64,000 nt of DNA from Eledone cirrhosa (Eukaryota). Below, piece by piece: positions 1 through 64,000 of the stretch; position 1 is the first letter of the stretch; each line of letters starts with the position of its first letter. The notes under the pieces are model-generated. The model had not been told where the DNA came from, ran no database searches, and was given only the letters and a program-made list of their open reading frames with translations. Location: positions 124,001-188,000 of the forward strand of contig OZ024757.1 of NCBI GenBank assembly GCA_964016885.1, written 5' to 3'. The translations under genes and the position numbers were made by a program.

Positions 1-3000
1 GAGATAGTGACATTGGGGTGAAGACAATAGCTACTAGGGTGCGATAGTGACATTGGGTGAAGACAATAGCTACTAGGGTGAGATAGTGACATTGGTGTGA
101 AGACAGTAGCTACTAGAGTGAAATAGTGACATTAGGGTGAAGACAGTAGCTACTAGGGTGAGATAGTGACATTAGGGTGAAGACAGTAGCTACTAGGGTG
201 AGATAGTGACATTGGGGTGAAGACAGTAGCTACTAGGGTGAGATAGTGACATTCGGGTGGAGACAGTTGAAACTAGGGTGAGATAGTGACATTGGGGTGG
301 AGACAATAGCTTCTAGGGTGAGATAGTGACATTGGGGTGAAGACAGTAGCTACTAGGGGTGAGATAGTGACATTGGGGTGAAGACAGTAGCTACTAGGGT
401 GAGATAGTGACATTGGGGTGAAGACATTAGCTACTACAGTGAGATAGTGACATTGGGGTGCAGACAGTAGCTACTAGGGTGAGATAGTGACATTGGGGTG
501 CAGACAGTAGCTACTAGGGCGAGATAGTGACATTAGAGTGAAGACAGTAGTTACTAGGGTGAGATAGTGACATTGGGGTGATGACAGTAGCTACTAGGGT
601 GCGATAGTGACATTGGGTGAAGACAATAGCTACTAGGGTGAGATAGCGACATTGGTGTGAAGACAGTAGCTACTAGAGTGAAATAGTGACATTAGGGTGA
701 AGACAGTAGCTACTAGGGTGAGATAGTGACATCAGGGTGAAGACAGTAGCTACTAGGGTGAGATAGTGACATTGGGGTGAAGACAGTAGCTACTAGGGTG
801 AGATAGTGACATTCGGGTGGAGACAGTTGAAACTAGGGTGAGATAGTGACATTAGGGTGAAGACAGTAGCTTCTAGGGTGAGATAGTGACATTCGGGTGA
901 AGACAGTAGCTACTAGGGGTGAGATAGTGACATTGGGGTGAAGACAGTAGCTACTAGGGTGAGATAGTGACATTGGGGTGAAGACAGTAGCTACTTGGGT
1001 GAGATAGTGACATTAGGGTGAAGACATTAGCTACTACAGTGAGATAGTGACATTGGGGTGCAGACAGTAGCTACTAGGGTGAGATAGTGACATTAGAGTG
1101 AAGACAGTAGTTACTAGGGTGAGATAGTGACATTGGGGTGATCACAGTAGCTACTAGGGTGCGATAGTGACATTGGGGTGAAGACAGTAGTTACTAGGGT
1201 CAGCTAGTGACATTGGGGTGAAAACAGTAGCTACTAGGGTGAGATAGTGACATTGGGGTGAAGACAGTAGCTACTAGCATGAGATAGTGACATTGGGGTG
1301 GAGACAGTAGCTACTAGGATGAGATATTGAGATTGGGGTGGAGACAGTAGCTACTAGGGTGAGATAGTGACATTGGGGTGGAGACAATAGTTACTAGGGT
1401 GAGATAGTGACATTAGGGTACAGACAGTTGCTATTATCATGAGATAGTGACATTGGGGTGAAGACAATAGCTACTAGGGTGCGATAGTGACATTGGGTGA
1501 AGACAATAGCTACTAGGGTGAGATAGCGACATTGGTGTGAAGACAGTAGCTACTAGAGTGAAATAGTGACATTAGGGTGAAGACAGTAGCTACTAGGGTG
1601 AGATAGTGACATTAGGGTGAAGACAGTAGCTACTAGGGTGAGATAGTGACGTTAGGGTGAAGACAGTAGCTACTAGGGTGAGATAGTGACATTCGGGTGG
1701 AGACAGTTGAAACTAGGGTGAGATAGTGACATTGGGGTGGAGACAATAGCTTCTAGGGTGAGATAGTGACATTCGGGTGAAGACAGTAGCTACTAGGGGT
1801 GAGATAGTGACATTGGGGTGAAGACAGTAGCTACTAGGGTGAGATAGTGACATTGGGGTGAAGACAGTAGCTACTTGGGTGAGATAGTGACATTAGGGTG
1901 AAGACATTAGCCACTACAGTGAGATAGTGACATTGGGGTGCAGACAGTAGCTACTAGGGTGAGATAGTGACATTAGAGTGAAGACAGTAGTTACTAGGGT
2001 GAGATAGTGACATTGGGGTGATGACAGTAGCTACTAGGGTGCGATAGTGACATTGGGGTGAAGACAGTAGTTACTAGGGTCAGCTAGTGACATTGGGGTG
2101 AAAACAGTAGCTACTAGGGTGAGATAGTGACATTGTGGTGAAGACAGTAGCTACTAGCGTGAGATAGTGACATTGGGGTGGAGACAGTAGCTACTAGGAT
2201 GAGATATTGAGATTGGGGTGGAGACAGTAGCTACTAGGGTGAGATAGTGACATTGGGGTGGAGACAATAGTTACTAGGGTGAGATAGTGACATTAGGGTA
2301 CAGACAGTTGCTACTATCATGAGATAGTGACATTGGGGTGAAGACAATAGCTACTAGGGTGCGATAGTGACATTGGGTGAAGACAATAGCTACTAGGGTG
2401 AGATAGTGACATTGGTGTGAAGACAGTAGCTACTAGAGTGAAATAGTGACATTAGGGTGAAGACAGTAGCTACTAGGGTGAGATAGTGACATTAGGGTGA
2501 AGACAGTAGCTACTAGGGTGAGATAGTGACATTGGGATGAAGACAGTAGCTACTAGGGTGAGATAGTGACATTCGGGTGGAGACAGTTGAAACTAGGGTG
2601 AGATAGTGACATTGGGGTGGAGACAATAGCTTCTAGGGTGAGATAGTGACATTCGGGTGAAGACAGTAGCTACTAGGGGTGAGATAGTGACATTGGGGTG
2701 AAGACAGTAGCTACTAGGGTGAGATAGTGACATTGGGGTGAAGACATTAGCTACTACAGTGAGATAGTGACATTGGGGTGCAGACAGTAGCTACTAGGGT
2801 GAGATAGTGACATTGGGGTGCAGACAGTAGCTACTAGGGTGAGATAGTGACATTAGAGTGAAGACAGTAGTTACTAGGGTGAGATAGTGACATTGGGGTG
2901 ATGACAGTAGTTACTAGGGTCAGCTAGTGACATTAGGGTGAAAACAGTAGCTACTAGGGTGAGATAGTGACATTGGGGTGAAGACAGTAGCTACTAGCGT

Positions 3001-3403
3001 GAGATAGTGACATTGGGGTGGAGACAGTAGCTACTAGGATGAGATATTGACATTGGGGTGGAGACAGTAGCTACTAGGGTGAGATAGTGACATTGGGGTG
3101 GAGACAATAGTTACTAGGGTGAGATAGTGACATTAGGGTACAGACAGTTGCTACTATGGTGAGATAGTGACATTGGGGTGAAGACAATAGCTACTAGGGT
3201 GAGATAGTGACATTGGTGTGAAGACAGTAGCTACTAGTGTGAGATAGTGACATTAGGGTGAAGACAGTAGCTTCTAGGGTGAGATAGTGACATTGGGGTA
3301 AAGAGAGTAGCTACTAGGGTGAGATAGTGACATTGGGGTAAAGAGAGTAGCTACTAGGGTGAGATAGTGACATTAGGGTGGAGACAATAGCTACTCAGGT
3401 GAG
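1..3403. repeat. 40-bp satellite array 1 (consensus GAGATAGTGACATTGGGGTGAAGACAGTAGCTACTAGGGT), ~85 monomers, truncated by the window start
   Basis: Direct 40-bp periodicity. Diagnostic variants recur at 880-bp spacing (agacagttgaaac at 821, 1701, 2581). Confidence 0.97.
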
Positions 3404-4460
3404 TCGTCACAACCTCATCCCATGTCTTCCTGGGTCTACCTCTTCCAAGGGTCCTAGCTACTGGGGTTTCTCTGTATCTCCTTATCCAGCTTCTATTTAC
3501 CATATACATCAAATACCCATACCAACATAGTCTTCTCTCTTGCACACTCTATCCAATTCCTCTTATGCCAAATTCTGCTTATGCTATTTCACTCATGCAC
3601 ACTAACATTACATACATTGTATGCTTGCTAAGTTTACTTTTAGTCCTTTCACCTTTTGGTTCTTCTTCCATGCTTGAAATTTCGTCCCTAACTTTCCTAC
3701 AGATTCAGCTATGAGTACTACATCATCAGCACATAGGACGTCCCAGGGATTGCCAATGTTAAACTGCTTAATGATGGCCTGAAGGATAATTATAAACAGG
3801 ATTGGGCTGAGGACTGAACTCTAATGGACTCCTACCTGTACATTTCCACACTAAACTCAGAACCAAACTCACTTTACTAACAGTTTCTCTGTACATAGCT
3901 TGCACTTCTCTTACAAGGCATTCTCCTACACCTAGTTTCCTTAAGGACCACAATATGACAGATACAGATACTCTGTCAAAGGACTTCTCCACATGAACAA
4001 TATTTAGATACAGAGGCTTATTCTTAGCTAGTAACTTCTCTTGTAGTTTTGTCATTAAGAAAAGAGTATATCTGTAGTACTTCTCCCTGGCATAAAATCT
4101 AACAACATCTCATCTAATTTGATTCTTTCCCTAAGTATTAAAACTCTTTCTCACATTTCCATTACTTGTTCCATGCTTGAGTAGTTGCTCCTTTCTAGTA
4201 CCTAGACAGTAGCTACTAGGGTGAGATAGTGATAGTGGGATGAAGACAGTAGCTACTAGGGCGAGATTACCTGATTGACTATGTAGGTGACTAGTTTGAA
4301 ATCTACTTCCCCAGAACCTTTCAACATCTCAGTTATTTCTAATGGAACAGCAGCTTTACCATTTTTATTCCCCTTGATTGCTTCTTTGACCCTATAACTA
4401 TCTATTTCAATAGCTGGTCCCTCTTTGGGGTTAGTTGGAGGTAGTCTCTCTTTTCAGTTA
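3404..4460 (-). mobile_element. Degenerate RTE-clade LINE fragment (reverse transcriptase and C-terminus)
   Basis: Minus-strand ORF pieces LQEKLLAKNKPLYLNIVHVEKSFDRV, WDVLCADD (degenerate YADD) and GRGRPRKTW, with frameshifts and stops. Confidence 0.88.
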
Positions 4461-4639
4461 TTTACCATTTTACAGGGTTAACTGTGTGTGATCCCTTCTA
4501 TTCATTCGGGAACATATTCAACTTTGATAATAAATTGACTAAATTAGTAAATTCTATACCATACAGTAGTTTCAATACAAGTCTTGGTTAGATCTTCTAT
4601 AAATAAACTGAGAGGAGGGTAATTTTTTAGTAAACCAGT

Positions 4640-4739: not shown

Positions 4740-5557
<818 letters not shown>

Positions 5558-7171
5558 CTATGGTTTCTCTCCTATATGGATGAGATTGTGTGTTGTTAAA
5601 TGTCCTTTCAGAGAGAATGATTTACCACAGATATCACAGTGGTATGGTTTCTCTCCTGTATGAATACGTTTGTGATTTGTTAAGACATTATTTTGAGAGA
5701 ATGATTTACCACAGATATCACAGTGATAGGGCTTCTCTCCTGTATGGATGAGATTGTGTGTTGCTAAGTGTCCTTTCTGAGAGAATGATTTACCACAGAT
5801 ATCACAGTGGTATGGTTTCTCTCCTGTATGAGTAAAATTGTGTGTTAATAAGCTTCCTTTCTGTGAAAATGACTTACCACAGATATTACAATGGTATGGC
5901 TTCTCGCCTGTATGAATAAGATTGTGTAATGTTAAGTGTTTTTTCTGAGAGAATGATTTACCACAGATATCACAGTGGTATGGTTTCTCTCCTGTATGAG
6001 TAAGATTGTGTGCTAATAAGCTTCCTTTCTGTGAAAATGACTTACCACAGATATTACAATGGTATGGCTTCTCTCCTGTATGGATGAGATTGTGTGTTAA
6101 TAAGCTTCCTTTCTGTGAAAATGACTTACCACAGATATTACACTGGTATGGCTTCTCTCCTGTATGAGTAAGATTGTGTGCTAATAAGTGTCCTTTCTGT
6201 GAAAATGACTTACCACAGATATTACAGTGATATGGCTTCTCTTCTATATGAATAGATTTGTGATTTGTTAAGACATTATTTTGAGAGAATGATTTACCAC
6301 AGATATCACAGTGGTATGGTTTCTCTCCTGTATGAATACGTTTGTGATTTGTTAAGGCATTATTTTGAGAGAATGATTTACCACAGATATCACAGTGATA
6401 GGGCTTCTCTCCTGTATGGATGAGATTGTGTGTTGTTAAGTGTCTTTTCAGAGAGAATGCTTTACCACAGATATCACAGTGGTATGGTTTCTCTCTTGTA
6501 TGAGTAAGATTGTGTGTTAATAAGCTTCCTTTCTGTGAAAATGACTTACCACAGATATTACAATGGTATGGCTTCTCTCCTGTATGAGTAAGATTGTGTG
6601 TTAATAAGTTTCCTTTATGTGAAAATGACTTACCACAGATATTACAGTGATATGGCTTCTCTTCTGTATGAATAGATTTGTGATTTGTTAAGACATTATT
6701 TTGAGAGAATGATTTACCACAGATATCACAGTGGTATGGTTTCTCTCCTGTATGAATACGTTTGTGATTTGTTAAGACATTATTTTGAGAGAATGATTTA
6801 CCACAGATATCACAGTGATAGGGCTTCTCTCCTGTATGGATGAGATTGTGTATTGTTAAGTGTCCTTTCTGAGGGAATGATTTACCACAGATATCACAAC
6901 GGTATGGTTTCTCTCCTGTATGAATACGTTTGTGATTTGTTAAGACATTATTACGAGAGAATGATTTACCACAGATATCACAGTGGTATGGTTTCTCTCC
7001 TGTATGGATGAGATTGTGTATTGTTAAGTGTCCTTTCTGAGAGAATGATTTACCACAGATATCACAATGGTATGACTTCTCTCCTCTATTCTTTGTTATC
7101 TCATTAGGAATACTAATACCTTTAGGCAGTGTTTCACATTTAACCTTCTTCTCACCCAACTTATTTTCCAT
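5558..7171 (-). CDS. Poly-C2H2 zinc-finger protein with 18 fingers, a short N-terminal leader and no visible effector domain
   Basis: 18 x 28-aa CxxC..HxxxH-TGEKP repeats. The ORF-track start at 7192 is TTG; the first in-frame ATG is at 7171 (MENKLGEKK). Ends at a TAG replacing the Tyr of finger 19. Confidence 0.93.
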
Positions 7172-7528
7172 AATGTCTCTTCTTCTCACCAAAGTATATA
7201 GACGTTTTTCTTGTGTTATATTTATATTATATTTCTAGAAATATTGTCTGATTCTATATTTCAATCAACTTTGATCTCAGTTAATATCTGAAGATTATGA
7301 AAACTTCTTTGTCATCCAAGTTTAATTAAAATACAAAATCTTCATTCGAGATAGTGAAGAAACGAACATTTGCCAATAAACTCACTTCTGATGAAATATT
7401 TTACAGTAAGTCAGTCATAGATTTATATAATCAGTGTTATATCAGTTCTGTATAAAACACTTTAGTCTTTGATGATAAATGTTGATGTATCCAAGGTTTA
7501 AAAATTTATCCCAATGTCATCTGGTATT

Positions 7529-7550
7529 CTGAAATAAGAAAGAAACAGTA
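7529..7550 (-). promoter_or_regulatory. Putative splice acceptor of the ZNF coding exon
   Basis: Minus strand reads tactgtttctttcttatttcag|AATACC (pyrimidine tract plus CAG). Same in unit 2, with the AG at 32251..32252. Confidence 0.6.
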
Positions 7551-7675
7551 TGAGTTAATACAGAATACTTAAATACTAGAGATAGATTTATTAGAGCAAA
7601 TTTTAAACTTTTATATCAATAATCTCTAGATATAGACCTTTAATTGAAAAATCAACTTTAGTTTTTAATTTGTTA

Positions 7676-7932
7676 TCAATATTACATCATACAACCTTGT
7701 ATGATATCTATATATACAGACATATATACATATGTCAATGTTACATTGTACAACCTTGTGTAATGTCTATATATACAGACATATATATATATATTACATT
7801 ATATAACCTTGTGTAATGTCTATATATATAGACATAAATATATATATGTTACATTATACAACCTTGTGTGATGTCTATATATACAGACATATATATACAT
7901 ATGTCAATATTACATTATACAACCTTGTGTGA

Positions 7933-7970
<38 letters not shown>

Positions 7971-8064
7971 CATATATATATTGCATTATACAACCTCGTG
8001 TAATGTCTATATATATATACAGACATATATATATTACATTATACAACCTTGTGTAATGTCTATA
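7676..8064. repeat. TA-variable minisatellite (tacattatacaaccttgtgtaatgtc(ta)n[g/c]agacat...), left block
   Basis: Repeated ~45-60 bp units with variable TA runs. The same repeat resumes at 9346. Confidence 0.9.
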
Positions 8065-8410
8065 TCATCATTCATCATCATTTCACTTTACGTCCGCTTT
8101 TTCCCTGCTTGCAAGGGTGGGACAGGAAATGATTCTGGCTTGATTTCTACAGCTGGATGCCCTTCCTAACACCAACCTCATTTACAGTGAGTGCTGGGTG
8201 CTTTTTTGCCATGGCACCTCCACGACCACTTTGCAGTGGAATGATATGGACCCCAGTCCCTATCATCTCATTTCTACAGCTGAGTAAACTGGAGCAATGT
8301 GAAATAAAGTGTCTTGCTCAAGGACACAACACATCACCTGGTCTGAGAATTGAACTCACAACCTTTCAATTGCAAGGCCAATGCTCTAACCACTAAGCCA
8401 TGTGCCTCCA
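8065..8410 (-). mobile_element. tRNA-derived SINE with a CORE-like domain and an RTE-type tail ending in (ATG)n
   Basis: Minus strand has A box TGGCTTAGTGG, B box GAGTTCAATTC, then GTGTCCTTGAGCAAGACACTT. The tail TTAGGAAGGGCATCCAGCTGTAGAAA is shared with the LINE 3' end at ~13495. Confidence 0.82.
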
Positions 8411-8427
8411 TGTATATATATATATAT

Positions 8428-9345
8428 CTCTCTTGTTCACGATTTCAACGAATTTAAATTCATAGAAATTTGGGACTTGACTCCTTCTTCCTCACTTTTC
8501 GTTGCTTCACCATTTTTGTTTGTTTACACTCGTGTTCCCTTTATTTACGTGTCTCAACGACTTTTTTTAGCCGTTGCTCACACCAACCGGAGGTATATGG
8601 TCTTTAAAGCGATGAAATACCAATGATGGTTGGAAGATCATTGATGAAGGACTAACTTTATTCATATGTAACCCATTAGCAACCCAGCAGCACGTTTTTC
8701 TCATATTTACACATATTGTTTTCCCCGCTGTTACACGTCTATTTCGTTCTTACTGCTTCCTCTTTCTCTGTATCTTTACCCTCTCTAGCAGTCACTCTCT
8801 CTGTTAGCCTCTTCCTCACCCTTCACTCACTCATTCTCTGTTACTACCTCTCTGCTGCCTCCTTCTTCCCGTTTGACCTGTGCGTAATTCTTTTCTTTCG
8901 CACCCTTGGTCTGGCAGGTTGCTTTTTTCTCTCTCTCGTTTACGATTTCATAGAACTTACGTTCACCGAAATCACAGACTAGATCCCTTCTTCCTCCCGT
9001 TAGACCTGTACGGAATTCCTTCCTTGCTTACATTCCAACCAGGTTTGATGGTCTTTATTCTCTCTCGTTCACGATTTCACCGAATTTAAATTCATAGAAA
9101 TTTGGGACTTGACTCCTTCTTCCTCACTTTTCGTTGCTTCACCATTTTTGTTTGTTTACACTCGTGTTCCCTTTATTTACGTGTCCCAACGACTTTTTTT
9201 AGCCATTGCTCGCACCAACCGCAGGTATATGGTCTTTAAAGCGATGAAATACCAATGATGGTTGGAAGATCACTGATGAAGGACTAACTTTATTCATATG
9301 TAACCCATTAGCAACCCCGCAGCACGTTTTTCTCATATTTACACA
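8428..9345 (+). mobile_element. Non-coding element with ~286-bp direct repeats (8428..8713 and 9060..9345), possibly Penelope-like pseudo-LTRs
   Basis: Near-identical direct repeats without TG..CA ends, flanked by (TA)n. CTGATGAAGG in the second repeat. The family assignment is inference. Confidence 0.5.
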
Positions 9346-10045
9346 CATATATATATATATATACATATGTCAATATTACATTATACAACCTTGTGTAATG
9401 TATATATATAGACATATATATACACATGTTACATTATACAACCTTGTGTAATGTCTATATATAGACATATATATACATATGTTACATTATACAACCTTGT
9501 GTAATGTCTATATATATAGACATATATATACATATGTCAATATTACATTATACAACCGTGTGTAATGTCTATATATACAGACATATATACATATGTCTAT
9601 TACATTATACAACCTTGTGTAATGTCTATATATACAGACATATATATACATATGTTACATTGTACAACCTTGTGTAATGTATATATATACAGACATATAT
9701 ATACATATGTTACATTGTACAACCTTGTGTAATGTATATATATACAGACATATATATACATATGTTACATTATACAACCTTGTGTAATGTCTATATACAG
9801 ACATATATATACATATGTTACATTGTACAACCTTGTGTAATGTATATATATATAGACATATATATACATATGTTACATTATTCAACCTTGTGTAATGTCT
9901 ATATATATATAGACATATATATACATATGTTACATTATACAACCTTGTGTAATGTCTATATATATATATAGACATATATATACATATGTTACATTATACA
10001 ACCTTGTGTAATGTCTATATATAGACATATATACATTTGTCAATG
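9346..10045. repeat. TA-variable minisatellite, right block
   Basis: Same unit as 7676..8064. Explains the spurious YIYI-rich ORFs. Confidence 0.92.
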
Positions 10046-10699
10046 TCTGTCAGTCTGGTGCATTGCTCCAGCCACAAATCTCATCAGTAGTTCACAATAG
10101 GCTTTCAATAATATATATATATACATATATATATGGAACTAGCTGTTCCAATGGCAAGCTGTCAGCTCAGTTGTCATGCTCTACTATCTCAAGTATTGAG
10201 TACTCTGTAGAATAATGGTATATATATATATATATAAAATAAACCTGTCGAGAGTTATGAATCAGAATTTGTCGAATCTTACTGTTGCCGAATTGTTGTT
10301 TTGAGAAATGTAATGTATTTCACTTCATTTCCTTGTCTCTCCATGTTTCTTGGTCTAATTTACCTATCAGTATTTATATTGTCCCTTTAACTTTTCATAA
10401 TGATGGTCAAATCTGTAGGTCCTTTATAAAAATAATCTTCTCGTTAACTCCCCCCACGCCACCATTACTATTTGGTCCAATCATAATTCAGTGGCTTATA
10501 ATTATGTTTCTCTTACCAATCTCTTCCACAAAACCACTGCCTCGGCTATCACTCCTTAAGTTTAGACTTGGTTGCTTTTGATATGCTAGATGGACTATAG
10601 AATTTGGAGAGTTTGTAGAATCTGGACACTCAATGACAATGTCAAAGATAAAGATAAATGTTGCCAGACGAGAATGCAAGGACTCCTCTCTATTTCAGA

Positions 10700-13625
10700 C
10701 ACGGATGGCTGTACATAACCTCATCTCCCTCACCCCTCCTTGCACCACCAACCCGTCCCTTCCACCCACCCAAGGAAATCCAAAATTTCAGAGTTGGTAC
10801 TATGAATGTAGCCACTTAAAAAGGTCGCTCTAACGAAGTTGTAGAGATGCTTCAACATGAGGAAGTTGATGTGTGCTGTGTCCAAGAGACCAGGTGGAGG
10901 GGTGGGTCTGCTAGATTTATTGTGGGTAAAATACGATGCTATAAACTTTTCTGGGTGGGAAATTACAAAGGGCTGGGTGGAGTAGAAATTATGTTAGCTG
11001 AAAAATGGGTAGATAAGGTAATTGACGTAAATAGAGTGAATGACAGAATAATTAAAATAAGACTTGTCCTAAATAGAACTACCTGGCATTATAAAAGATT
11101 CTATGAGTCGCTAATGCCCAAATAAATGACAGTGACTACATAATTATTGCTGGCTACTTAAATAGTCATGTTGGACAACATTGTGACGGCTATGACAGAA
11201 TCCATGGTGGCTATGGGTTTGGTACTAGAAATGAGGAAGGCTTCATAATCCTGGAATTCTGTAAAGAAAACTTCAAAAAAGAAGACAATCACTTGATCAC
11301 CTATAGATCAGGGGAACACGCCAGTCAGATAGATTATATCCTTACCAGAAGACGTGACAGAGTGTCTATTGTAAAAACTAAATCCCTCCCCCGTGAAGAA
11401 TGCACCTCCCAACATAGCCTCATAGTTAGTGACCTCATAGTCAGGACTAGACATACTCAACAATAAAAGAATACCTTGAGGAGAAGAATATGGAAGTTGA
11501 AGGACCCCTCAGCCAGTAACAAATTTAAAAGCATATTACTTGATGCTTTTGACAGTAAGGAAGAGCAATTAGAGATATACAATATAGAGGAATAGGGGGA
11601 ATTCCTGAAAGTTAACCTGCTGAAGGCAAAAGATAAGATCAGTGGCTGGAGTAGACCTATAGGCAGGAAGAGAGTAACGTGGTGGTGGAACAGTAAGGTA
11701 GAGGAGTCAATCAAGGCCAAAAAGCAGACTTGGAAAGTATGGCGAGATGGGGGAAGTAGAGAACACTATCAAGTGGCCAGGAGAGAAGCTAGGAAACACA
11801 TGTACTTTGCAAGAAGGGAAGCAGAGGAAAGAAAGTTCAAGCATGTTCTGCAACGCGAGGACCAAAAACGTGAGGTGTTCAGGATTGCTAGGCAATGTGT
11901 CAAGGAAAACCGTGATATTGTCGGGGAGAAGTGTGAGCGTAATGATGATGGTGTACTTGCCATCACTGATGCTGATAAGAAAGTAGCTTGGAAGTGTCAC
12001 TACGAGAGACTACTAAATGAGGAGAATAAATGTAAAAAAGATAGTCTGCCCCAAATTGATCCAATAGAGGGACCAGCAGTGCAAGTTAAAGGTAGTATAA
12101 TAAGGCAATCAAAGATATGAAGACAAGCAAGGCAGCTGGGCCTTCAGGGATAGTTGCTGAAATGCTCAAAGCATCTGGAATGGTGGGACACACTATGGTC
12201 ATCCGGATAGTAAACCAAGTCATACAGAATGGGATCATACCAAATGACTGGCGTAGCAGCATCATCATTAACTGCTACAAGGGTAAAGGAGATGCCCTAG
12301 ATAGGGGAAACTATAGAGGCTTTAAATTAGTTGACCAGGTCATGAAGGTCACAGAAAGAGTTATAGCACAACTAAGCAGAGAGCGAATTGATCTAGATGA
12401 AATGCAGTTTGGGTTTGTGTTTGCTAAAAGTACCACAGATGCTCTTTTCCTTGTACAACAACTACAAAAGTTACCTAGCTAAAAGTAAACCCCTATACTT
12501 AGCTTTTGTCGACTTGGAGAAAGCCTTTAACAGAGTCCCCCGCTCCATTATCTGGTGGGCTCTTAGAAAAGTAGGTGTTGATGAATGGCTTGTGAGAGCT
12601 ATACAAGCCTTGTATAAAGAAATAGTCAGCAAGGTTAGAATTAATGAATATAGTGAAGAATTTAGCGTAAAAGTTGGTGTTCATTAAGGCTCTGTCTTTA
12701 GCCCCCTCCTATTTATTATTGCCGTTCAGGCTATAACAGAGGAGTTCAAGACTGGCTGCCAATGGGAACTTCTATATGCAGATGATCTAACTCTCATAGC
12801 AGAATCGATGGGTGAACTAGAGAAGAAATTCCAAACATGGAAGCATGGCCTAGAATCAAAAGGCCTTAAAGTTAATTTGTCTAAGACTAAAGTTCTAGTA
12901 TGTAGAAAGGAAAATAGGGCACAGGTTACCTCTGGGAAATGGCCATGCTCAAAATCAGCAGTGGTGGAGGGTGCTCTGAAAGTACAGTAGTCAGAACGGG
13001 AATAAGAGGGATCAGATGCTGTTTACTCGAGAGAAGACTATGTTTGGATCGTCATGTGATGTGCATGAAAAACGACAGCTGTATAAAAAAGTGCAGGGCG
13101 ATCAGAATTGATGGAAGTTACGGAGTAGGTAGACCCAGAAAAACCTGAGACGATTTGATAAATTCCGACCTTACACATTTACACCTCTCTAAGACAATGT
13201 CACTGAACCGAGATCTTTGGCGCTACATAGTAATACAGAAGACCCGCCTTACCTATCTACAAAGCAAAACCTACAGTCAGTAGGTACCTCTTAACCAAAT
13301 ATACACCCCCATTCCACTACCCCCCTTTCTCTATAAAGTTATGTTGGTACCACAACATACAGTCAAAATAAATGAGATAATGAGATCGAGATCATGTAAG
13401 TGTCACTACAAAAAAACACACAGTTCACACTGTAATGTGGCTGTGTAGGTAACACAGCAGAACCTCCCAGTCCACACTGTAAACATTGTTGGTGTTAGGA
13501 AGGGCATCCAGCTGTAGAAAACCTGCCAGATACAGTCCTATAAGAGCGAGACACGTTGACCTGACCAATCTTGCCTCAACCCATGCTAGCGTGGAAGATA
13601 GCTGTTAAACAATGATGATGATGAT
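10700..13625 (+). mobile_element. Near-full-length inactivated RTE-clade LINE (AP endonuclease + reverse transcriptase)
   Basis: APE motifs VCCVQETRWRG and SQIDYIL; RT motifs KGKGDALDRGNYRG, AFVDLEKAFNRV and ELLYADDL; GRPRKT C-terminus; (ATG)n tail at ~13612-13625; several stops, frameshifts and deletions. Confidence 0.93.
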
Positions 13626-13969
13626 TGAGATGATAGGTTTCTTATAAGCAGTTGATATACCGTAACCTCTTGAGAATAGGCTGGTCCTAGTGATCCAAAA
13701 GCACTTCACATCAGTAGTTTATCCCAGGTAGGTGTTGGTAATTAGGAGAGACAGAGTAATCATTTATCAAATAAGAGTAGTTAAGATGGGATTAATTCAC
13801 CATAATTGTTTATTGCATGATATATATTTCTGTGACATGGTTATTCACGTGACATTATCAGATTCTTACACAATCATAGTTACAGTTATGTAATGATTGG
13901 GATATGTCAGTGGGCATGTATAACTATCCTGTAGTAATGTCAGCTGGCATATGTATCATGAATAGTAGT

Positions 13970-42974: not shown

Positions 42975-43019
<45 letters not shown>

Positions 43020-43701: not shown

Positions 43702-43733
<32 letters not shown>

Positions 43734-53100: not shown

Positions 53101-56100
53101 ATTGGGGTGAAGACAATAGCTACTAGGGTGATATGGTGACATTGGGGTGAAGACAATAGCTACTAGGGTGAGATGGTGAAATTGGGGTGAAGACAATAGC
53201 TACTAGGGTGAGATAGTGATATTGGGGTGAAGACAATAGCTACAAGGGTGAGATAGTGATATTGGGGTGAAAACAATAGCTACGAGGGTGCGATAGTGAC
53301 ATTGGGGTGAAGACAATAGCTACTAGGGTGAGATAGTGACATTGGGGTGAAGACAAATGCTACAATGGTGCGATAGTGACATTGGGGTGAAAACAATAGC
53401 TACTAGGGTGAGATAGTGACATTGGGATGAAGACAGTAGCTACTAGGGTGAGATAGTGACATTGGAGTGGAGACAGAAGCTACTAAGGTGAGATAGTGAT
53501 ATTGGGGTGAAGACAATAGCTACTAGGGTGAGATAGTGACATTGGGGTGAAGACAGAAGCTACTAAGGTGAGATAGTGACATTGGGGTGAAGACAATAGC
53601 TACTAGGGTGAGATAGTGACATTGGGGTGAAGACAGAAGCTACTAAGGTGAGATAGTGATATTGGGTTGAAGACAATAGCTACTAGGGTGCGATAGTGAC
53701 GTTGGGGTGAAGACAATAGCTACTAGGTTGAGATAGTGACATTGGGGTGAAGACAGTAGCTACTAGGGTGAGGTAGTGACATTGGGGTGGAGACAATAGC
53801 TACTAGGGTGAGATAGTGACATTGGGGTGAAGACAATAGCTACTAGGGTGAGATAGTGACATTGGGGTGAAGACAATAGCTACTAGGGTGAGGTAGTGAC
53901 ATTGGGGTGGAGACAATAGCTACTAGGGTGAGATAGTGACATTGGGGTGAAGACAATAGCTACTAGGGTAAGATAGTTACATATGGGTGAAGACAATAGC
54001 TACTAGGGTAAGATAGTTACATATGGGTGAAGACAGTAGCTACTAGGGTGAGATAGGGACATTGGGGTGGAGAGAGTAGCAAATAGGGTGAGATAGTGAC
54101 ATTGGGGTGAAGACAGTAGCTACTAGGGTGAGATAGGGACATTAGGGTGAAGACAGAAGCTAGTAAGGTGAGATAGTGACATTGGGGTGAAGACAATAGC
54201 TACTAGGGTGAGATAGTGACATTGGGGTGAAGACAATAGCTACTAGGGTGAGATAGTGACATTGGGGTGAAGACAGTAGCTACTAGGGTGAGATAGTGAC
54301 ATTGGGGTGAAGACAATAGCTACTAGGGTGAGGTAGTGACATTGGGGTGGAGACAATAGCTACTAGAGTGAGATAGTGACATTGGAGTGGAGACAGAAGC
54401 TACTAAGGTGAGATAGTGACATTGGGGTGAAGACAATAGCTACTAGGGTGAGATGGTTACATTGGGGTGAAGACAATAGCTACTAGGGTGAGATGGTGAC
54501 ATTGGGGTGAAGAGAATAGCTACTAGGGTGAGATGGTGACATTGGAGTGGAAACAGAAGCTACTAAGCTGAGATAGTGACATTGGGGTGAAGACAATAGC
54601 TACTAGGGTGATATGGTGACATTGGCGTGAAGACAATAGCTACTAGGGTGAGATGGAGACATTGGGGTGAAGACAATAGCTACTAGGGTGAGATAGTGAT
54701 ATTGGGGTGAAGACAATAGCTACAAGGGTGAGATAGTGACATTGGGGTGAAAACAATAGCTACGAGGGTGCGATAGTGACATTGGGGTGAAGACAATAGC
54801 TACTAGGGTGAGATAGAGACAGTAGCTACTAGGGTGAGATAGTTACATTGTAGTCGAGACAGAAGCTACTAAGGTGAGATAGTGACATTGGGGTGAAAAC
54901 AATAGCTACTAGGGTGAGATAGTGACATTGGGTTGACGACAATAGCTACTAGGGTGAGATAGTGACATTGGGGTGAAGACAAATGCTACTAGGGTGAGAT
55001 AGTGACATTGGGATGAAGACAGTAGCTACTAGGTTGAGATAGTGACATTGGAGTGGAGACAGAAGCTACTAAGGTGAGATAGTGATATTGGGGTGAAGAC
55101 AATAGCTACTAGGGTGAGATAGTGACATTGGGGTGAAGACAGTAGCTACTAGGGTGAGATAGTGACATAGTAGTGGAGACAGAAGCTACTAAGGTGAGAC
55201 AGTGATATTGGGGTGAAGACAATAGCTACTAGGGTGAGATAGTGACATTGGGGTGAATACAGAAGCTACTAAGGTGAGATAGTGACATTGGGGTGAAGAC
55301 AATAGCTACTAGTGTGAGATAGTGACATTGGGGTGAAGACAATAGCTACTAGGGTGAGATAGTGACATTGGGGTGAAGACAGTAGCTACTAGGTTGAGAT
55401 AGTGACATTGGGGTGAAGACAATAGCTACTAGGGTGAGGTAGTGACATTGGGGTGGAGACAATAGCTACTAGGGTGAGATAGTGACATTGGAGTGGAGAC
55501 AATAGCTACTAGGGTGAGATAGTGACATTGGGGTGAAGACAGAAGCTACTAAGGTGAGATAGTGATATTGGGTTGAAGACAATAGCTACTAGGGTGCGAT
55601 AGTGACGTTGGGGTGAAGACAATAGCTACTAGGTTGAGATAGTGACATTGGGGTGAAGACAGTAGCTACTAGGGTGAGGTAGTGACATTGGGGTGGAGAC
55701 AATAGCTACTAGGGTGAGATAGTGACATTGGGGTGAAGACAATAGCTACTAGGGTGAGATAGTGACATTGGGGTGAAGACAATAGCTACTAGGGTGAGGT
55801 AGTGACATTGGGGTGGAGACAATAGCTACTAGGGTGAGATAGTGACATTGGGGTGAAGACAATAGCTACTAGGGTAAGATAGTTACATATGGGTGAAGAC
55901 AATAGCTACTAGGGTAAGATAGTTACATATGGGTGAAGACAGTAGCTACTAGGGTGAGATAGGGACATTGGGGTGGAGAGAGTAGCAAATAGGGTGAGAT
56001 AGTGACATTGGGGTGAAGACAGTAGCTACTAGGGTGAGATAGGGACATTAGGGTGAAGACAGAAGCTAGTAAGGTGAGATAGTGACATTGGGGTGAAGAC

Positions 56101-59100
56101 AATAGCTACTAGGGTGAGATAGTGACATTGGGGTGAAGACAATAGCTACTAGGGTGAGATAGTGACATTGGGGTGAAGACAGTAGCTACTAGGGTGAGAT
56201 AGTGACATTGGGGTGAAGACAATAGCTACTAGGGTGAGGTAGTGACATTGGGGTGGAGACAATAGCTACTAGAGTGAGATAGTGACATTGGAGTGGAGAC
56301 AGAAGCTACTAAGGTGAGATAGTGACATTGGGGTGAAGACAATAGCTACTAGGGTGAGATGGTTACATTGGGGTGAAGACAATAGCTACTAGGGTGAGAT
56401 GGTGACATTGGGGTGAAGAGAATAGCTACTAGGGTGAGATGGTGACATTGGAGTGGAAACAGAAGCTACTAAGCTGAGATAGTGACATTGGGGTGAAGAC
56501 AATAGCTACTAGGGTGATATGGTGACATTGGCGTGAAGACAATAGCTACTAGGGTGAGATGGAGACATTGGGGTGAAGACAATAGCTACTAGGGTGAGAT
56601 AGTGATATTGGGGTGAAGACAATAGCTACAAGGGTGAGATAGTGACATTGGGGTGAAAACAATAGCTACGAGGGTGCGATAGTGACATTGGGGTGAAGAC
56701 AATAGCTACTAGGGTGAGATAGAGACAGTAGCTACTAGGGTGAGATAGTTACATTGTAGTCGAGACAGAAGCTACTAAGGTGAGATAGTGACATTGGGGT
56801 GAAAACAATAGCTACTAGGGTGAGATAGTGACATTGGGTTGACGACAATAGCTACTAGGGTGAGATAGTGACATTGGGGTGAAGACAAATGCTACTAGGG
56901 TGAGATAGTGACATTGGGATGAAGACAGTAGCTACTAGGTTGAGATAGTGACATTGGAGTGGAGACAGAAGCTACTAAGGTGAGATAGTGATATTGGGGT
57001 GAAGACAATAGCTACTAGGGTGAGATAGTGACATTGGGGTGAAGACAGTAGCTACTAGGGTGAGATAGTGACATAGTAGTGGAGACAGAAGCTACTAAGG
57101 TGAGACAGTGATATTGGGGTGAAGACAATAGCTACTAGGGTGAGATAGTGACATTGGGGTGAATACAGAAGCTACTAAGGTGAGATAGTGACATTGGGGT
57201 GAAGACAATAGCTACTAGTGTGAGATAGTGACATTGGGGTGAAGACAATAGCTACTAGGGTGAGATAGTGACATTGGGGTGAAGACAGTAGCTACTAGGT
57301 TGAGATAGTGACATTGGGGTGAAGACAATAGCTACTAGGGTGAGGTAGTGACATTGGGGTGGAGACAATAGCTACTAGGGTGAGATAGTGACATTGGGGT
57401 GAAGACAATAGCTACTAGGGTGAGATAGTGACATTGGGGTGGAAACAATAGCTACTAGGGTGAGGTAGTGATATTGGGGTGAATACAATAGCTACAAGGG
57501 TGACATAGTGACATTGGGGTGAAGTCAATAGCTACTAGGGTGAGATAAAGACATTGGGGTGAAGACAATAACTACTAGGGTGAGATAGTGACATTGGAAT
57601 GGAGACAGAAGCTACTAAGGTGAGATAGTGACATTGGGGTGAAGACAATAACTACTAGGGTGAGATGGTGACATTGGGGTGAAGACAATAGCTACTAGGG
57701 TGAGATGGTGACATTGGGGTGAAGACAATAGCTACTAGGGTGAGATGGTGACATTGGGGTGAAGACAATAGCTACTAGGGTGAGATAGTGATATTGGGGT
57801 GAAGACAATAGCTACAAGGGTGAGATAGTGACATTGGGGTGAAGTCAATTGCTACTAGGGTGAGATAGAGACATTGGGGTGAAGGCAATAGCTACTAGGG
57901 TGAGATAGTGACATTGGGTGAAGACAATAGCTACTAGGGTGAGGTAGTGACATTGGGGTGGAGACAATAGCTACTAGGGTGAGATAGTGACATTGGGCTG
58001 AAGACAATAGCTACTAGGGTGAGATAGTGACATTGGGGTGAAAACAATAGCTACTAGGTTGAGGTAGTGACATTGGGGTGGAGACAATAGCTACTAGGGT
58101 GAGATAGTGACATTGGGGTGAAGACAATAGCTACTAGGGTAAGATAGTTACATATGGGTGAAGACAGTAGCTACTAGGGTGAGATAGGGACATTGGGGTG
58201 GAGAGAGTAGCTACTAGGGTGAGATAGTGACATTGGGGTGAAGACAGTAGCTACTAGGGTGAGATAGGGACATTAGGGTGAAGACAGAAGCTACTAAGGT
58301 GAGATAGTGACATTGGGGTGAAGCCAATAGCTACTAGGGTGAGATAGTGACATTGGGGTGAAGCCAATAGCTACTAGGGTGAGATAGTGACATTGGGGTG
58401 AAGACAGTAGCTACTAGGTTGAGATAGTGACATTGGGGTGAAGACAATAGCTACTAGGGTGAGATGGTGACATTGGGGTGAAGACAATAGCTACTAGGGT
58501 GAGATGGTGACATTGGGGTGAAGACAATAGCTACTAGGGTGAGATGGTGACATTGGAGTGGAAACAGAAGCTACTAAGGTGAGATAGTGACATTGGGGTG
58601 AAGCCAATAGCTACTAGGGTGAGATAGTGACATTGGGGTGAAGCCAATAGCTACTAGGGTGAGATAGTGACATTGGGGTGAAGACAGTAGCTACTAGGGT
58701 GAGATAGTGACATTGGGTGAAGACAGTAGCTACTAGGGTGAGATAGTGACATTGGGGTGAAGCCAATAGCTACTAGGGTGAGATAGTGACATTGGGGTGA
58801 AGACAATAGCTACTAGGGTGAGATGGTGACATTGGGGTGAAGACAATAGCTACTAGGGTGAGATAGTGATATTGGGGTGAATACAATAGCTACAAGGGTG
58901 AGATAGTGACATTGGGGTGAAAACAATAGCTACGAGGGTGCGATAGTGACATTGGGGTGAAGACAATAGATACTAGGGTGACATAGAGACAGTAGCTACT
59001 AGGGTGAGATAGTGACATTGGGGTGAAGACAATAGCTACTAGGGTGAGCTAGTGACATTGGGGTGAAGACAGAAGCTACTAAGGTGAGATAGTGACATTG

Positions 59101-62100
59101 GGGTGAAAACAATAACTACTAGGGTGAGATAGTGACATTGGGTTGACGACAATAGATACTAGGGTGAGATAGTGACATTGGGGTGAAGACAAATGCTACA
59201 ATGGTGGGATAGTGACATTGGGGTGAAAACAATAGCTACTAGGGTGAGATAGTGACATTGGGATGAAGACAGTAGCTACTAGGGTGAGATAGTGACATTG
59301 GAGTGGAGACAGAAGCTACTAAGGTGAGATAGTGATATTGGGGTGAAGACAATAGCTACTAGGGTGAGATAGTGACATTGGGGTGAAGACAGAAGCTACT
59401 AAGGTGAGATAGTGACATTGGGGTGAAGACAATAGCTACTAGGGTGAGGTAGAGACATTGGGGTGGAGACAATAGCTACTAGGGTGAGGTAGTGACATTG
59501 GGGTGGAGACAATAGCTACTAGGGTGAGATAGTGACATTGGGGTGGAGACAATAGCTACTAGGGTGAGATAGTGACATTGGGGTGAAGACGGAAGCTACT
59601 AAGGTGAGATAGTGATATTGGGGTGAAGACAATAGCTACTAGGTTGTGATAGTGACGTTGGGGTGAAGACAATAGCTACTAGGGTGAGATAGTGACATTG
59701 GGGTGAAGACAGTAGCTACTAGGGTGAGATAGTGACATTGGGGTGAAGACAATAGCTACTAGGGTGAGGTAGAGACATTGGGGTGGAGACAATAGCTACT
59801 AGGGTGAGGTAGTGACATTGGGGTGGAGACAATAGCTACTAGGGTGAGATAGTGACATTGGGGTGAAGACAATAGCTACTAGGGTAAGATAGTTACATAT
59901 GGGTGAAGACAATAGCTACTAGGGTAAGATAGTTACATATGGGTGAAGACAGTAGCTACTAGGGTGAGATAGGGACATTGGGGTGGAGAGAGTAGCAACT
60001 AGGTTGAGATAGTGACTTTGGGGTGAAGACAGTGGCTACTAGGGTGAGATAGGGACATTAGGGTGGAGACAGAAGCTACTAAGGTGAGATAGTGACATTG
60101 GGGTGAAGACAATAGCTACTAGGGTGAGATAGTGACATTGGGGTGAAGACAATAGCTACTAGGGTGAGATAGTGACATTGGAGTGGAGACAGAAGCTACT
60201 AAGGTGAGATAGTGACATTGGGGTGAAGACAATAGCTACTAGGGTGAGATGGTGACATTGGGGTGAAGACAATAGCTACTAGGGTGAGATAGAGACAGTA
60301 GCTACTAGGGTGAGATAGTGACATAGTAGTGGAGACAGAAGCTACTAAGGTGAGATAGTGACATTGGGGTGAAAACAATAGCTACTAGAGTGAGATAGTG
60401 ACATTGGGTTGACGACAATAGCTACTAGGGTGAGATAGTGACATTGGGGTGAAGACAAATGCTACAATGGTGCGATAGTGACATTGGGGTGAAAACGATA
60501 GCTACTAGGGTGAGATAGTGACATTGGGATGAAGACAGTAGCTACTAGGGTGAGATAGTGACATTGGAGTAGAGACAGAAGCTACTAAGGTGAGATAGTG
60601 ATATTGGGGTGAAGACAATAGCTACTAGGGTGAGATAGTGACATTGGGGTGAAGACAGAAGCTACTAAGGTGAGATAGTGACATTGGGGTGAAGACAATA
60701 GCTACTAGGGTGAGATAGTGACATTGGGGTGAAGACAATAGCTACTAGGGTGAGATAGTGACATTGGGGTGAAGACAGTAGCTACTAGGGTGAGATAGTG
60801 ACATTGGGGTGAAGACAATAGCTACTAGGGTGAGGTAGTGACATTGGGGTGGAGACAATAGCTACTAGGTTGAGATAGTGACATTGGGGTGAAGACAATA
60901 GCTACTAGGGTGAGATAGTGACATTGGGGTGAAAACAATAGCTACTAGGGTGAGGTAGTGACATTGGGGTGGAGACAATAGCTACTAGGGTGAGATAGTG
61001 ACATTGGGGTGAAGACAATAGCTACTAGGGTAAGATAGTTACATATGGGTGAAGACAATAGCTACTAGGGTAAGATAGTTACATATGGGTGAAGACAGTA
61101 GCTACTAGGGTGAGATAGGGACGTTGGGGTGGAGAGAGTAGCAACTAGGGTGAGATAGTGACATTGGGGTGAAGACAGTAGCTACTAGGGTGAGATAGGG
61201 ACGTTAGGGTGAAGACAGAAGCTACTAAGGTGAGATAGTGACATTGGGGTGAAGACAATAGCTACTAGGGTGAGATAGTGACATTGGGGTGAAAACAATA
61301 GCTACTAGGGTGAGATAGTGACATTGGGGTGAAGACAGTAGCTACTAGGGTGAGATAGTGACATTGGGGTGAAGACAATAGCTACTAGGGTGAGGTAGTG
61401 ACATTGGGGTGGAGACAATAGCTACGAGGGGGAGATAGTGACATTGGGGTGAAGACAATAGCTACTAGGGTGAGGTAGTGACATTGGGGTGGAGACAATA
61501 GCTACTAGGGTGAGATAGTGACATTGGGGTGAAGACAATAGCTACTAGAGTGAGATAGTGACATTGGGGTGAAGACAATAGCTACTAGGTTGAGGTAGTG
61601 ACATTGGGGTGGAGACAATAGCTACTAGGGAGAGATAGTGACATTGGGGTGAAGACAATAGCTACTAGGGTAAGATAGTTACATATGGGTGAAGACAATA
61701 GCTACTAGGGTGAGATAGAGACAGTAGCTACTAGGGTGAGATAGTTACATTGTAGTCGAGACAGAAGCTACTAAGGTGAGATAGTGACATTGGGGTGAAA
61801 ACAATAGCTACTAGGGTGAGATAGTGACATTGGGTTGACGACAATAGCTACTAGGGTGAGATAGTGACATTGGGGTGAAGACAAATGCTACTAGGGTGAG
61901 ATAGTGACATTGGGATGAAGACAGTAGCTACTAGGTTGAGATAGTGACATTGGAGTGGAGACAGAAGCTACTAAGGTGAGATAGTGATATTGGGGTGAAG
62001 ACAATAGCTACTAGGGTGAGATAGTGACATTGGGGTGAAGACAGTAGCTACTAGGGTGAGATAGTGACATAGTAGTGGAGACAGAAGCTACTAAGGTGAG

Positions 62101-64000
62101 ACAGTGATATTGGGGTGAAGACAATAGCTACTAGGGTGAGATAGTGACATTGGGGTGAATACAGAAGCTACTAAGGTGAGATAGTGACACTGGGGTGAAG
62201 ACAATAGCTACTAGTGTGAGATAGTGACATTGGGGTGAAGACAATAGCTACTAGGGTGAGATAGTGACATTGGGGTGAAGACAGTAGCTACTAGGTTGAG
62301 ATAGTGACATTGGGGTGAAGACAATAGCTACTAGGGTGAGGTAGTGACATTGGGGTGGAGACAATAGCTACTAGGGTGAGATAGTGACATTGGGGTGAAG
62401 ACAATAGCTACTAGGGTGAGATAGTGACATTGGGGTGGAAACAATAGCTACTAGGGTGAGGTAGTGATATTGGGGTGAATACAATAGCTACAAGGGTGAC
62501 ATAGTGACATTGGGGTGAAGTCAATAGCTACTAGGGTGAGATAAAGACATTGGGGTGAAGACAATAACTACTAGGGTGAGATAGTGACATTGGAATGGAG
62601 ACAGAAGCTACTAAGGTGAGATAGTGACATTGGGGTGAAGACAATAACTACTAGGGTGAGATGGTGACATTGGGGTGAAGACAATAGCTACTAGGGTGAG
62701 ATGGTGACATTGGGGTGAAGACAATAGCTACTAGGGTGAGATGGTGACATTGGGGTGAAGACAATAGCTACTAGGGTGAGATAGTGATATTGGGGTGAAG
62801 ACAATAGCTACAAGGGTGAGATAGTGACATTGGGGTGAAGTCAATTGCTACTAGGGTGAGATAGAGACATTGGGGTGAAGACAATAGCTACTAGGGTGAG
62901 ATAGTGACATTGGGTGAAGACAATAGCTACTAGGGTGAGGTAGTGACATTGGGGTGGAGACAATAGCTACTAGGGTGAGATAGTGACATTGGGCTGAAGA
63001 CAATAGCTACTAGGGTGAGATAGTGACATTGGGGTGAAAACAATAGCTACTAGGTTGAGGTAGTGACATTGGGGTGGAGACAATAGCTACTAGGGTGAGA
63101 TAGTGACATTGGGGTGAAGACAATAGCTACTAGGGTGAGATAGTGACATTGGGGTGAAGCCAATAGCTACTAGGGTGAGATAGTGACATTGGGGTGAAGA
63201 CAGTAGCTACTAGGTTGAGATAGTGACATTGGGGTGAAGACAATAGCTACTAGGGTGAGATGGTGACATTGGGGTGAAGACAATAGCTACTAGGGTGAGA
63301 TGGTGACATTGGGGTGAAGACAATAGCTACTAGGGTGAGATGGTGACATTGGAGTGGAAACAGAAGCTACTAAGGTGAGATAGTGACATTGGGGTGAAGA
63401 CAATAGCTACTAGGGTGATATGGTGACATTGGGGTGAAGACAATAGCTACTAGGGTGAGATGGTGACATTGGGGTGAAGACAATAGCTACTAGGGTGAGA
63501 TAGTGATATTGGGGTGAATACAATAGCTACAAGGGTGAGATAGTGACATTGGGGTGAAAACAATAGCTACGAGGGTGCGATAGTGACATTGGGGTGAAGA
63601 CAATAGCTACTAGGGTGACATAGAGACAGTAGCTACTAGGGTGAGATAGTGACATAGTAGTGGAGACAGAAGCTACTAAGGTGAGATAGTGACATTGGGG
63701 TGAAGACAATAGTTACTAGGGTGAGCTAGTGACATTGGGGTGAAGACAGAAGCTACTAAGGTGAGATAGTGACATTGGGGTGAAAACAATAACTACTAGG
63801 GTGAGATAGTGACATTGGGTTGACGACAATAGATACTAGGGTGAGATAGTGACATTGGGGTGAAGACAAATGCTACAATGGTGGGATAGTGACATTGGGG
63901 TGAAAACAATAGCTACTAGGGTGAGATAGTGACATTGGGATGAAGACAGTAGCTACTAGGGTGAGATAGTGACATTGGAGTGGAGACAGAAGCTACTAAG
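47190..64000. repeat. 40-bp satellite array 3, >16.8 kb (~420 monomers), running off the window
   Basis: Same monomer and same entry junction as array 2, with internal block duplications. Confidence 0.97.

Follow-up and report, generated by a model that had tools for sequence, protein, structure and literature searches.

Two tandem zinc-finger gene cassettes in Eledone cirrhosa and the possible origin of their 40-bp satellite inside a LINE

Whether satellites at ZNF clusters act as a cause or are carried along as cargo has been a standing question since human 19p12, where Eichler et al. 1998 reportedly proposed that blocks of beta-satellite, which has a 68-bp monomer, are linked to expansion of the KRAB-ZNF cluster. 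In octopus, a tandem repeat is said to be enriched near C2H2 genes, a parallel with beta-satellite having already been drawn (Albertin 2015). The octopod C2H2 expansion has been portrayed as a burst dating from 25-41 million years ago, and its mechanism has been inferred from old copies. The window analysed here, a stretch of 64,000 nt from Eledone cirrhosa, holds two colinear cassettes in the same orientation (A and B) that are only 1.85% diverged and represent a very young, testable snapshot of this expansion. At such low divergence the junctions, finger histories and satellite variants are still readable, and one can ask directly whether crossovers occurred within the satellite or at any point of the unit.

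The cassettes and their zinc-finger genes

Each cassette contains one poly-C2H2 gene, and the window holds three arrays of a 40-bp satellite (S1, S2 and S3) in one orientation (Table 1), as the earlier note had described; all three arrays, called by TRF, are G-rich on the + strand with a GC skew of about +0.53. The repeat period is 23,149 bp from the start of S2 to the start of S3 and 23,961 bp from the end of S1 to the end of S2, which bears out the head-to-tail unit of about 23 kb that had been proposed. With the tandem arrays left out, 220 of 11,862 aligned sites differ. Identity at aligned sites is 98.15%, yet indels reach 2.2 kb, the large ones being a 354-bp deletion in A, 690 bp present only in A and 2,190 bp present only in B. 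A test for gene conversion between the two gave a longest identical tract of 451 bp (P 0.011 if the rate is uniform), a length that uneven rates could also produce. No third cassette is visible within the window and there were no Rfam matches across 3400-47200.

Table 1 Features of the 64,000-nt window.
Feature	Position	Strand	Description
S1, 40-bp array	1-3403	+	TRF; open at left
Cassette A	3404-24040		holds one poly-C2H2 gene
LINE copy A	3404-4536	-	5'-truncated, broken, RTE-type
Satellite patch, LINE copy A only	4204-4267	+	about 65 bp
Candidate target-site copies, far LINE end	A 4521-4536; B 28819-28834
Degenerate, frameshifted finger tail	4740-5557	-	downstream of gene A stop
Poly-C2H2 ORF A	5558-7234	-	Pfam zf-C2H2
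ZNF gene A, coding part	5558-7171	-	Met at 7171, 537 aa, 18 C2H2 fingers
Likely 5' part of gene A	7172-9340	-	inferred from sequence
Second broken RTE-type LINE	10770-13625	+	endonuclease and RT remnants, GAT-repeat tail
44-bp VNTR, copy A	13971-17736	+	85.6 copies, 3.8 kb
Candidate target-site copy and GAA-type tail	24000-24013 and 24012-24023 (within 24000-24040)	-
S2, 40-bp array	24041-27364	+	TRF; complete
Cassette B	27365-47189		holds one poly-C2H2 gene
LINE copy B	27365-28834	-	3' UTR, ORF end GRGRPRKTW, RT remnant
Poly-C2H2 ORF B	29758-31956	-	Pfam zf-C2H2
ZNF gene B, coding part	29758-31893	-	711 aa from Met, 22 full fingers
44-bp VNTR, copy B	38661-39754		1.1 kb
B-only non-coding LTR element	42337-44431	+	two identical 366-bp LTRs
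S3, 40-bp array	47190-64000 (TRF call to 63998)	+	open at right

The two cassettes might be alleles of one locus that were joined in tandem through the satellite during assembly, since octopod heterozygosity of about 1% (0.96% and 1.10%; PMC9795677) is of the same order as their divergence, and S3 contains an exact 1,901-bp internal duplication, of a kind that mis-assembly can create. Such an artefact is very improbable given that the window has no Ns or gaps, that many large indels separate A from B and that the depth in a public run (see below) looks, on a rough measure, raised rather than halved. Nor is S2 an overlap of S1 and S3, because it is only 3.3 kb long, its middle is unique and its right junction is not shared.

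In gene A the 33 residues preceding finger 1 contain no effector domain, while a putative splice-acceptor-like site near 7529 and a donor-like site near 8960 were found in its likely 5' part. The first 99 nt of gene B are identical to those of A and the finger order is different. Several fingers are identical at 84/84 nt within and between the genes, yet their order differs, which supports the earlier suggestion that the 84-bp fingers are the units of shuffling; the 40 fingers comprise 34 distinct sequences. As read from the sequence, it is finger shuffling, and not the satellite, that makes the predicted proteins A and B differ.

The finger framework, with TGEKP linkers and no effector domain, matches the expanded C2H2 family of octopods, and among 229 proteins scored for this framework the seven highest were from Octopus, which bears out the octopod affinity suggested earlier. 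In a whole-protein search that scored 8,000 candidates no near-identical protein was found, and the best 120 matches, mostly vertebrate with 34-59% identity, carried no taxonomic signal. No KRAB was present among the best 25 of 35 and best 25 of 31 families for the two proteins. Binding of the fingers to their own satellites was unsupported in a weak test that used a crude recognition code (67-200 of 200 shuffles scored as high in 6/6 tests).

The satellite and the LINE that probably holds it

S1, S2 and S3 comprise 85, 83 and 422 monomer segments, respectively. S1 contains a 22-monomer (880-bp) higher-order repeat made of right-end variants, S3 has grown from left-end variants, and the minor variants of these two arrays differ. 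The left 33 monomers of S2 show 0-3 differences per 120 nt from S3, while in its short right end the monomers succeed one another as they do at the right of S1; the junctions and monomer order common to the left of S2 and S3, and to the right of S1 and S2, indicate that the satellite was duplicated together with the ZNF gene, and it had rightly been regarded as part of the amplifying unit. S2 is not a clean chimera of S1 and S3, because neither of those arrays contains a close match for about 25 central monomers of S2. The 40-mer had no matches in JGI metagenomes.

The flanks of S2 suggest that it likely lies inside the 3' end of one broken RTE-type LINE insertion. The LINE ORF end and 3' UTR enter S2 from the right, with homology in copy B reaching 28768 or slightly beyond, and a GAA-type tail adjoins S2 on the left, in a segment (24000-24040) that is identical at 47149-47189. 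The sequence ACTTTGATTAAATT ends at this tail and recurs as ACTTTGATAATAAATT 20-50 bp beyond the last LINE homology, forming a candidate target-site duplication with a 14/16-bp match and a 2-bp indel. This match, found only once the tail had been chosen by eye, is the best of 494 cassette B windows with the probe fixed; without probe choice, equally high scores were reached by 19/665, 26/659 and 165/5,000 control pairs (p about 0.03). The resemblance of the satellite end and tail to the terminus of the other LINE is weak, with 18 (one copy) and 135 (other copy) of 2,000 shuffles reaching the score; a third tail gave 351 and 379 of 2,000, and the best window ranked only about 17th of 1,856. The LINE holding S2 and the second LINE share 54-65% amino-acid identity and are presumably of the RTE clade, a label assigned from motifs; a search with a LINE piece gave five relatives, one of them crustacean.

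If S2 lies within one LINE insertion then its two flanks were likely adjacent before amplification. The arrays had been thought to mark the unit boundaries; as S2 is flanked by the LINE ORF end and 3' UTR, the tail and the candidate target-site duplication, the satellite is more likely cargo inside the unit, and this arrangement would imply at least three copies.

The same junctions can be read as the outcome of a single crossover within the satellite, where one cassette lay between, or had been inserted into, older satellite and exactly two units arose with S2 as the product. This would account for the match of the left of S2 to S3 and of its right end to S1, and for the different minor variants of S1 and S3. 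S2 begins at monomer position 2 and stops at position 4, in register with a 3-bp overlap (chance about 1 in 10, a rough estimate); this speaks for the LINE reading, but would also be expected had a cassette been inserted into an array and 3 bp been duplicated. In addition, the satellite is involved in two rearrangements found only in A, namely the absence of 354 bp of the LINE 3' end where it meets the satellite, at a short motif that is nearly identical, and a captured satellite patch (56 bp at 91%, E 6.5e-16) that displaces about 73 bp of LINE coding sequence retained in B. However, flanks that resemble one LINE insertion with a tail and target-site copy are unexpected from two unrelated arrays, the middle of S2 matches neither S1 nor S3, and contig depth suggests more than two copies, so we consider the single crossover unlikely.

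Copy number and proposed history

In one public run the contigs of the cassette have depths of 57-80 compared with about 8-11 at many other loci, a ratio without a proper single-copy baseline, and contig depth is not copy number. Among the listed contigs with two or fewer differences from A, three of four have depths of 57.5-80.5 and the fourth 26.4, while three diverged contigs of the same run have depths of 4.8-9.8; in the joint rows, six of 12 average 7.8-10.7 per contig and the other six 28-408. The run contains only 0.51 of the words of 7090-13960 and may therefore be from another individual or species. Two RAD runs yielded about 0-10 reads in the unique bins, and their other reads came from dispersed repeats at 90% likeness; pieces from another run were not attributable to the gene. 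The depth thus gives rough support for several cassette copies, which need not be tandem; taken with the LINE geometry it makes three or more copies likely, in agreement with the earlier expectation of more than two.

We favour, with moderate confidence, a young tandem amplification of a 23-24-kb one-gene unit in which the satellite is likely cargo and which would then exist in three or more copies. An RTE-type LINE would have inserted about 270 bp downstream of the degenerate tail of the ZNF gene, and 40 bp near the LINE 3' terminus would then have duplicated in place and grown into an array. Head-to-tail amplification of the entire block followed, as seen for two copies and presumed for more, most probably by unequal homologous exchange anywhere in the unit. 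The subsequent changes can be read in the window: the arrays formed different higher-order repeats and the copies diverged independently, the finger sets changed by gain, loss and reordering of 84-bp units, B acquired an LTR element, and A took up the satellite patch and lost the 354 bp that bordered the satellite.

A role of the satellite as the crossover substrate, supplying the homology for unequal exchange, is unproven, although the idea has a precedent in human 19p12 and the satellite is involved in the two A-only rearrangements. Homology is far more plentiful in the 20-kb cassette, and S2 is no clean chimera. The long S3 (over 16.8 kb) and the variant differences between S1 and S3 would also be accounted for if the ZNF block, with the LINE-borne satellite in it, had formed a circle that recombined through this satellite into a large array elsewhere and was then duplicated, a route by which the LINE flanks of S2 would stay joined. 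It needs more steps, no circle junction is seen in the window, and S1 and S3 end in monomers arranged like those at the ends of S2, as plain segmental copying predicts; we regard it as quite improbable.

With tandem amplification as the preferred reading, a satellite that is cargo in three or more copies would mean that the gene cluster is still growing, and a LINE origin, if true, would be a rare case of a multi-kilobase satellite with an identifiable birthplace. A bolder and doubtful possibility is that this octopod ZNF subfamily is now expanding as a 23-kb macrosatellite that has at least six units and varies in copy number, in which the LINE-born satellite seeds each unit, breaks and templates repair and so drives turnover, while fingers recombine between units in a minisatellite-like manner to give each copy a new binding array.

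Related clusters and other repeats

As in human 19p12, poly-C2H2 genes alternate with satellite blocks and are duplicated together with them; unlike 19p12, there is no KRAB domain, the monomer is 40 bp and not 68 bp, the copies are only 1.85% apart and the satellite was seemingly born in a LINE 3' end. The cassette array works like the 19p12 cluster and is not a member of it. The link between satellite and cluster reportedly proposed by Eichler et al. 1998 is cited in PMC3018141.

The mouse chromosome 4 KZFP cluster is likewise young and grows by segmental duplication, and its passenger repeats multiply and are proposed to promote recombination (PMC12575710). In the mouse, ERVs are the passengers and each duplication spans several genes, whereas here a one-gene unit carries LINEs and satellites. 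The finger type and tandem arrangement resemble coleoid C2H2 clusters (PMC9068888, PMC9795677), although A and B are far younger than the published bursts, dated at about 41 Ma (PMC9795677) and about 25 Ma (PMC13218726); the C2H2 genes of D. pealeii are reported to be without related subclusters. Satellite-linked ZNF cassettes in cephalopods were not found in the literature searched, which left out most subscription papers, so absence from print is not implied.

The human macrosatellites RS447, D4Z4, PRR20 and SST1 have 2.4-4.7-kb units in 5 to over 100 copies (PMC3018141). The cassettes share with them head-to-tail multi-kilobase units of high identity, some gene-bearing, but with a 23-kb unit and large indels they are closer to a tandem segmental duplication. 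Truncated 3' RTE pieces are known to end in and give rise to tandem repeats (PMC2887409); that precedent concerns microsatellite tails, whereas we propose that a 40-bp unit inside the 3' end gave arrays of 3 to over 16 kb.

A common origin of the 40-bp monomer and that of the 44-bp VNTR was unsupported (398/2,000 shuffles score as high). The second LINE is common to both cassettes and is the only one with an endonuclease match, which is below the Pfam cut-off (E 1.4e-4). The LTR element of B has a primer-binding-like site and is flanked by a duplication of about 76 bp.

Two colinear cassettes and their divergence

The earlier note's reading of two colinear cassettes (A and B), each with one poly-C2H2 zinc-finger (ZNF) gene, and of three 40-bp satellite arrays in the same orientation (S1, S2 and S3) was confirmed in the window, which contains no N letters. 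Colinearity extends along the entire cassette length and, with tandem arrays excluded, 220 of 11,862 aligned sites differ (1.85%), spread fairly evenly at 1.3–3.0% across 8 segments. The distance of 0.0188, together with the rate of 0.0036 per site per million years reportedly given by Albertin in 2015, would place the split of A and B at about 2.6 million years. The tandem ZNF amplification is real and very young and likely comprises three or more units; the label 'macrosatellite' for the cassette array is plausible, not established.

Positions of the satellite arrays, cassettes and B-only LTR element in the window
Feature	Position	Remarks
S1, array of 40-bp monomer	1-3403	same strand as S2 and S3
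S2, array of 40-bp monomer	24041-27364	same strand as S1 and S3
S3, array of 40-bp monomer	47190-64000	same strand as S1 and S2
Cassette A	3404-24040	between S1 and S2
Cassette B	27365-47189	between S2 and S3
Non-coding LTR element, B only	42337-44431	two identical 366-bp LTRs

The cassettes also differ by an A-only stretch of 690 bp, a B-only stretch of 2,190 bp and the length of a 44-bp VNTR (3.8 kb in A, 1.1 kb in B). The B-only LTR element has no ORF over 134 aa and a primer-binding-like site, which we take to be of the tRNA-Trp type. Its flanking duplication is about 76 bp in place of the 4–6 bp usual for such elements, which suggests an aberrant and very recent integration. The longest run of identity between A and B is 451 bp (P 0.011), no more than a hint of gene conversion. 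Two copies are too few for crossover mapping. Other features of the cassettes include a motif, presumably CTCF- or YY1-like, found once in each (23025-23038; B near 46190, with one difference), two SINE-like pieces of 200 bp and high copy number lying in tandem, together with two palindromic MITE-like elements (23538-23924, 20840-21130 and 23150-23270), and a further SINE-like piece in A only (18534-18725).

The satellite and its flanking LINE

The satellite belongs to the amplifying unit, as had been proposed: the left junction is identical for S2 and S3, and monomer order is shared at the left of S2 and S3 and at the right of S1 and S2. The first 33 monomers of S2 show 0–3 differences per 120 nt from S3 and the last few follow the same order as the S1 end, while about 25 in the middle (25860-26840) have a close match in neither S1 nor S3, mostly with 4–12 differences. 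Since then, right-end variants have been assembled into an 880-bp higher-order repeat in S1, and left-end variants have multiplied in S3. Exact duplications of 1,901 bp in S3 (53591-57397, lag 1,906) and of 774 bp in the 44-bp array at 14571 (lag 1,496) are either very recent events or assembly slips. Kinship of the 40-mers and 44-mers found no support.

The arrays were also thought to mark the unit boundaries, which is probably not the case, as S2 is flanked by a LINE 3′ end on the right and a GAA-type tail on the left. The broken minus-strand LINE on the right, presumably RTE-type judging by its motifs, has RT remnants 54–65% identical in protein to the second LINE, another broken element common to both cassettes (10770..13625 (+) in A); its ORF ends in GRGRPRKTW and is followed by a 3′ UTR continuing into the array. 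On the left, on the LINE strand, 17 bp precede the tail (24012-24023). The 14 bases ending at the tail (24000-24013) are found again, with a 2-bp indel, at 28819-28834, 20–50 bp beyond the point where LINE homology ends. Among 494 cassette B windows this recurrence takes first rank when the tail serves as the fixed probe, and 19/665, 26/659 and 165/5,000 probe-free control pairs score as well. S2 opens at monomer position 2 and closes at position 4; this 3-bp overlap is the expectation for a repeat born in place. Counting against a satellite inside the LINE, the array end and tail together only weakly resemble the window's other LINE tails (18, 135, 351 and 379 of 2,000 shuffles). Overall, we consider it fairly probable that the satellite lies inside the LINE, and it is likely to be LINE-born cargo. 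If it does lie there, the two S2 flanks were adjacent before amplification, the true unit junction is somewhere within the cassette and present twice in the window, and the three arrays stand for at least three copies. RTE 3′ ends are known as microsatellite sources (PMC2887409).

The satellite was involved in two events, both in A only. The first is the loss, relative to B, of 354 bp at the S1 edge, with the join at a short near-identical motif; in the second, ~65 bp of satellite replace about 73 bp of the LINE 800 bp away (4204-4267), resembling an insertion made during repair with the array as template. These events show local repair activity, not unit duplication. With two units in place, their 20 kb of 98%-identical sequence provides more homology than the arrays do.

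The ZNF genes and their fingers

Both ORFs are on the minus strand and, counting from the Met 33 residues ahead of finger 1, gene A is predicted to encode 537 aa with 18 fingers and gene B 711 aa with 22 full fingers; the two are identical over the first 99 nt. Finger types are few by contact residues (QGH, QNV, QGN, QGS and LGH), and several fingers match at 84/84 nt within or between genes, in an order that differs between A and B. Distinct sequences number 34 of 40, with a mean identity of 83%. Finger variation is concentrated in the helix, where residue-changing and silent pair differences sum to 3.55 and 0.48 over 7 codons, against 2.79 and 3.53 over the 21 non-helix codons; because fingers share descent, these counts are a description and not a selection test. 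Under a crude recognition code, binding of the fingers to the 40-, 44- or 55-bp repeats was unsupported.

A frameshifted finger tail lies behind both genes, with about nine such fingers after each stop (4740-5557 and 29030-29757). The gene B ORF extends further into this tail than that of gene A, and the ORF end has therefore shifted after duplication. A stretch of ~290 bp is locally duplicated (8430-8720 and 9060-9340) within what is likely the gene's promoter or first exon. Protein searches found no near-identical protein among the candidates scored. When 229 retrieved proteins were scored for finger framework, the seven highest were from Octopus, making an octopod the likely source.

Related clusters and copy number in public runs

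A parallel with beta-satellite was reportedly drawn in octopus work of 2015. ZNF genes of human 19p12 are interspersed with beta-satellite blocks (PMC3018141, citing Eichler 1998). Segmental duplication enlarges the KZFP cluster of mouse chromosome 4, and ERVs multiply with it as passengers (PMC12575710). Good descriptions exist of coleoid C2H2 clusters (PMC9068888, PMC9795677, PMC13218726), and repeats are predicted targets of ZNFs across animals, octopus included (PMC10547256). Searches of a largely open-access literature collection found no cephalopod report of satellite-linked ZNF cassettes; the supplements of octopus genome papers may bear on novelty.

Eleven public runs, none on record as RNA, matched 7090-13960, and the best three, from one sample, contain 0.48–0.51 of its words. 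Four of the eleven were compared with 17760-24030, with output dominated by dispersed repeats. Eight contigs are listed for one run (X1). Depth is 80.5, 70.8, 57.5 and 26.4 for the four closest to A (2 differences or fewer), 65.2 for a contig with 5 differences, and 9.8, 8.3 and 4.8 for the three with 8–13. X1 contigs also occur in 12 joint rows, six averaging 7.8–10.7 per contig and six 28–408. The cassette would be present about 6–9-fold if single loci lie near depth 9, and in about 3–4 copies per haploid genome if depth 9 is one haplotype; X1 depth is no direct copy number, the library type is off record, and the run may represent another individual or species. At 22880 and 23005 the main X1 contigs agree with B, and one contig shows 2 differences from A in a stretch with 4 between A and B, a pattern compatible with further copies and also with a merge of two. 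The two RAD runs (X9 and X10) are too shallow for copy-number use. The stretch 18810-20700, without an obvious ORF, attracts from tens to more than a thousand RAD reads along with a high summed contig depth; it is a middle-repeat family, perhaps upstream sequence that members of the ZNF family have in common.
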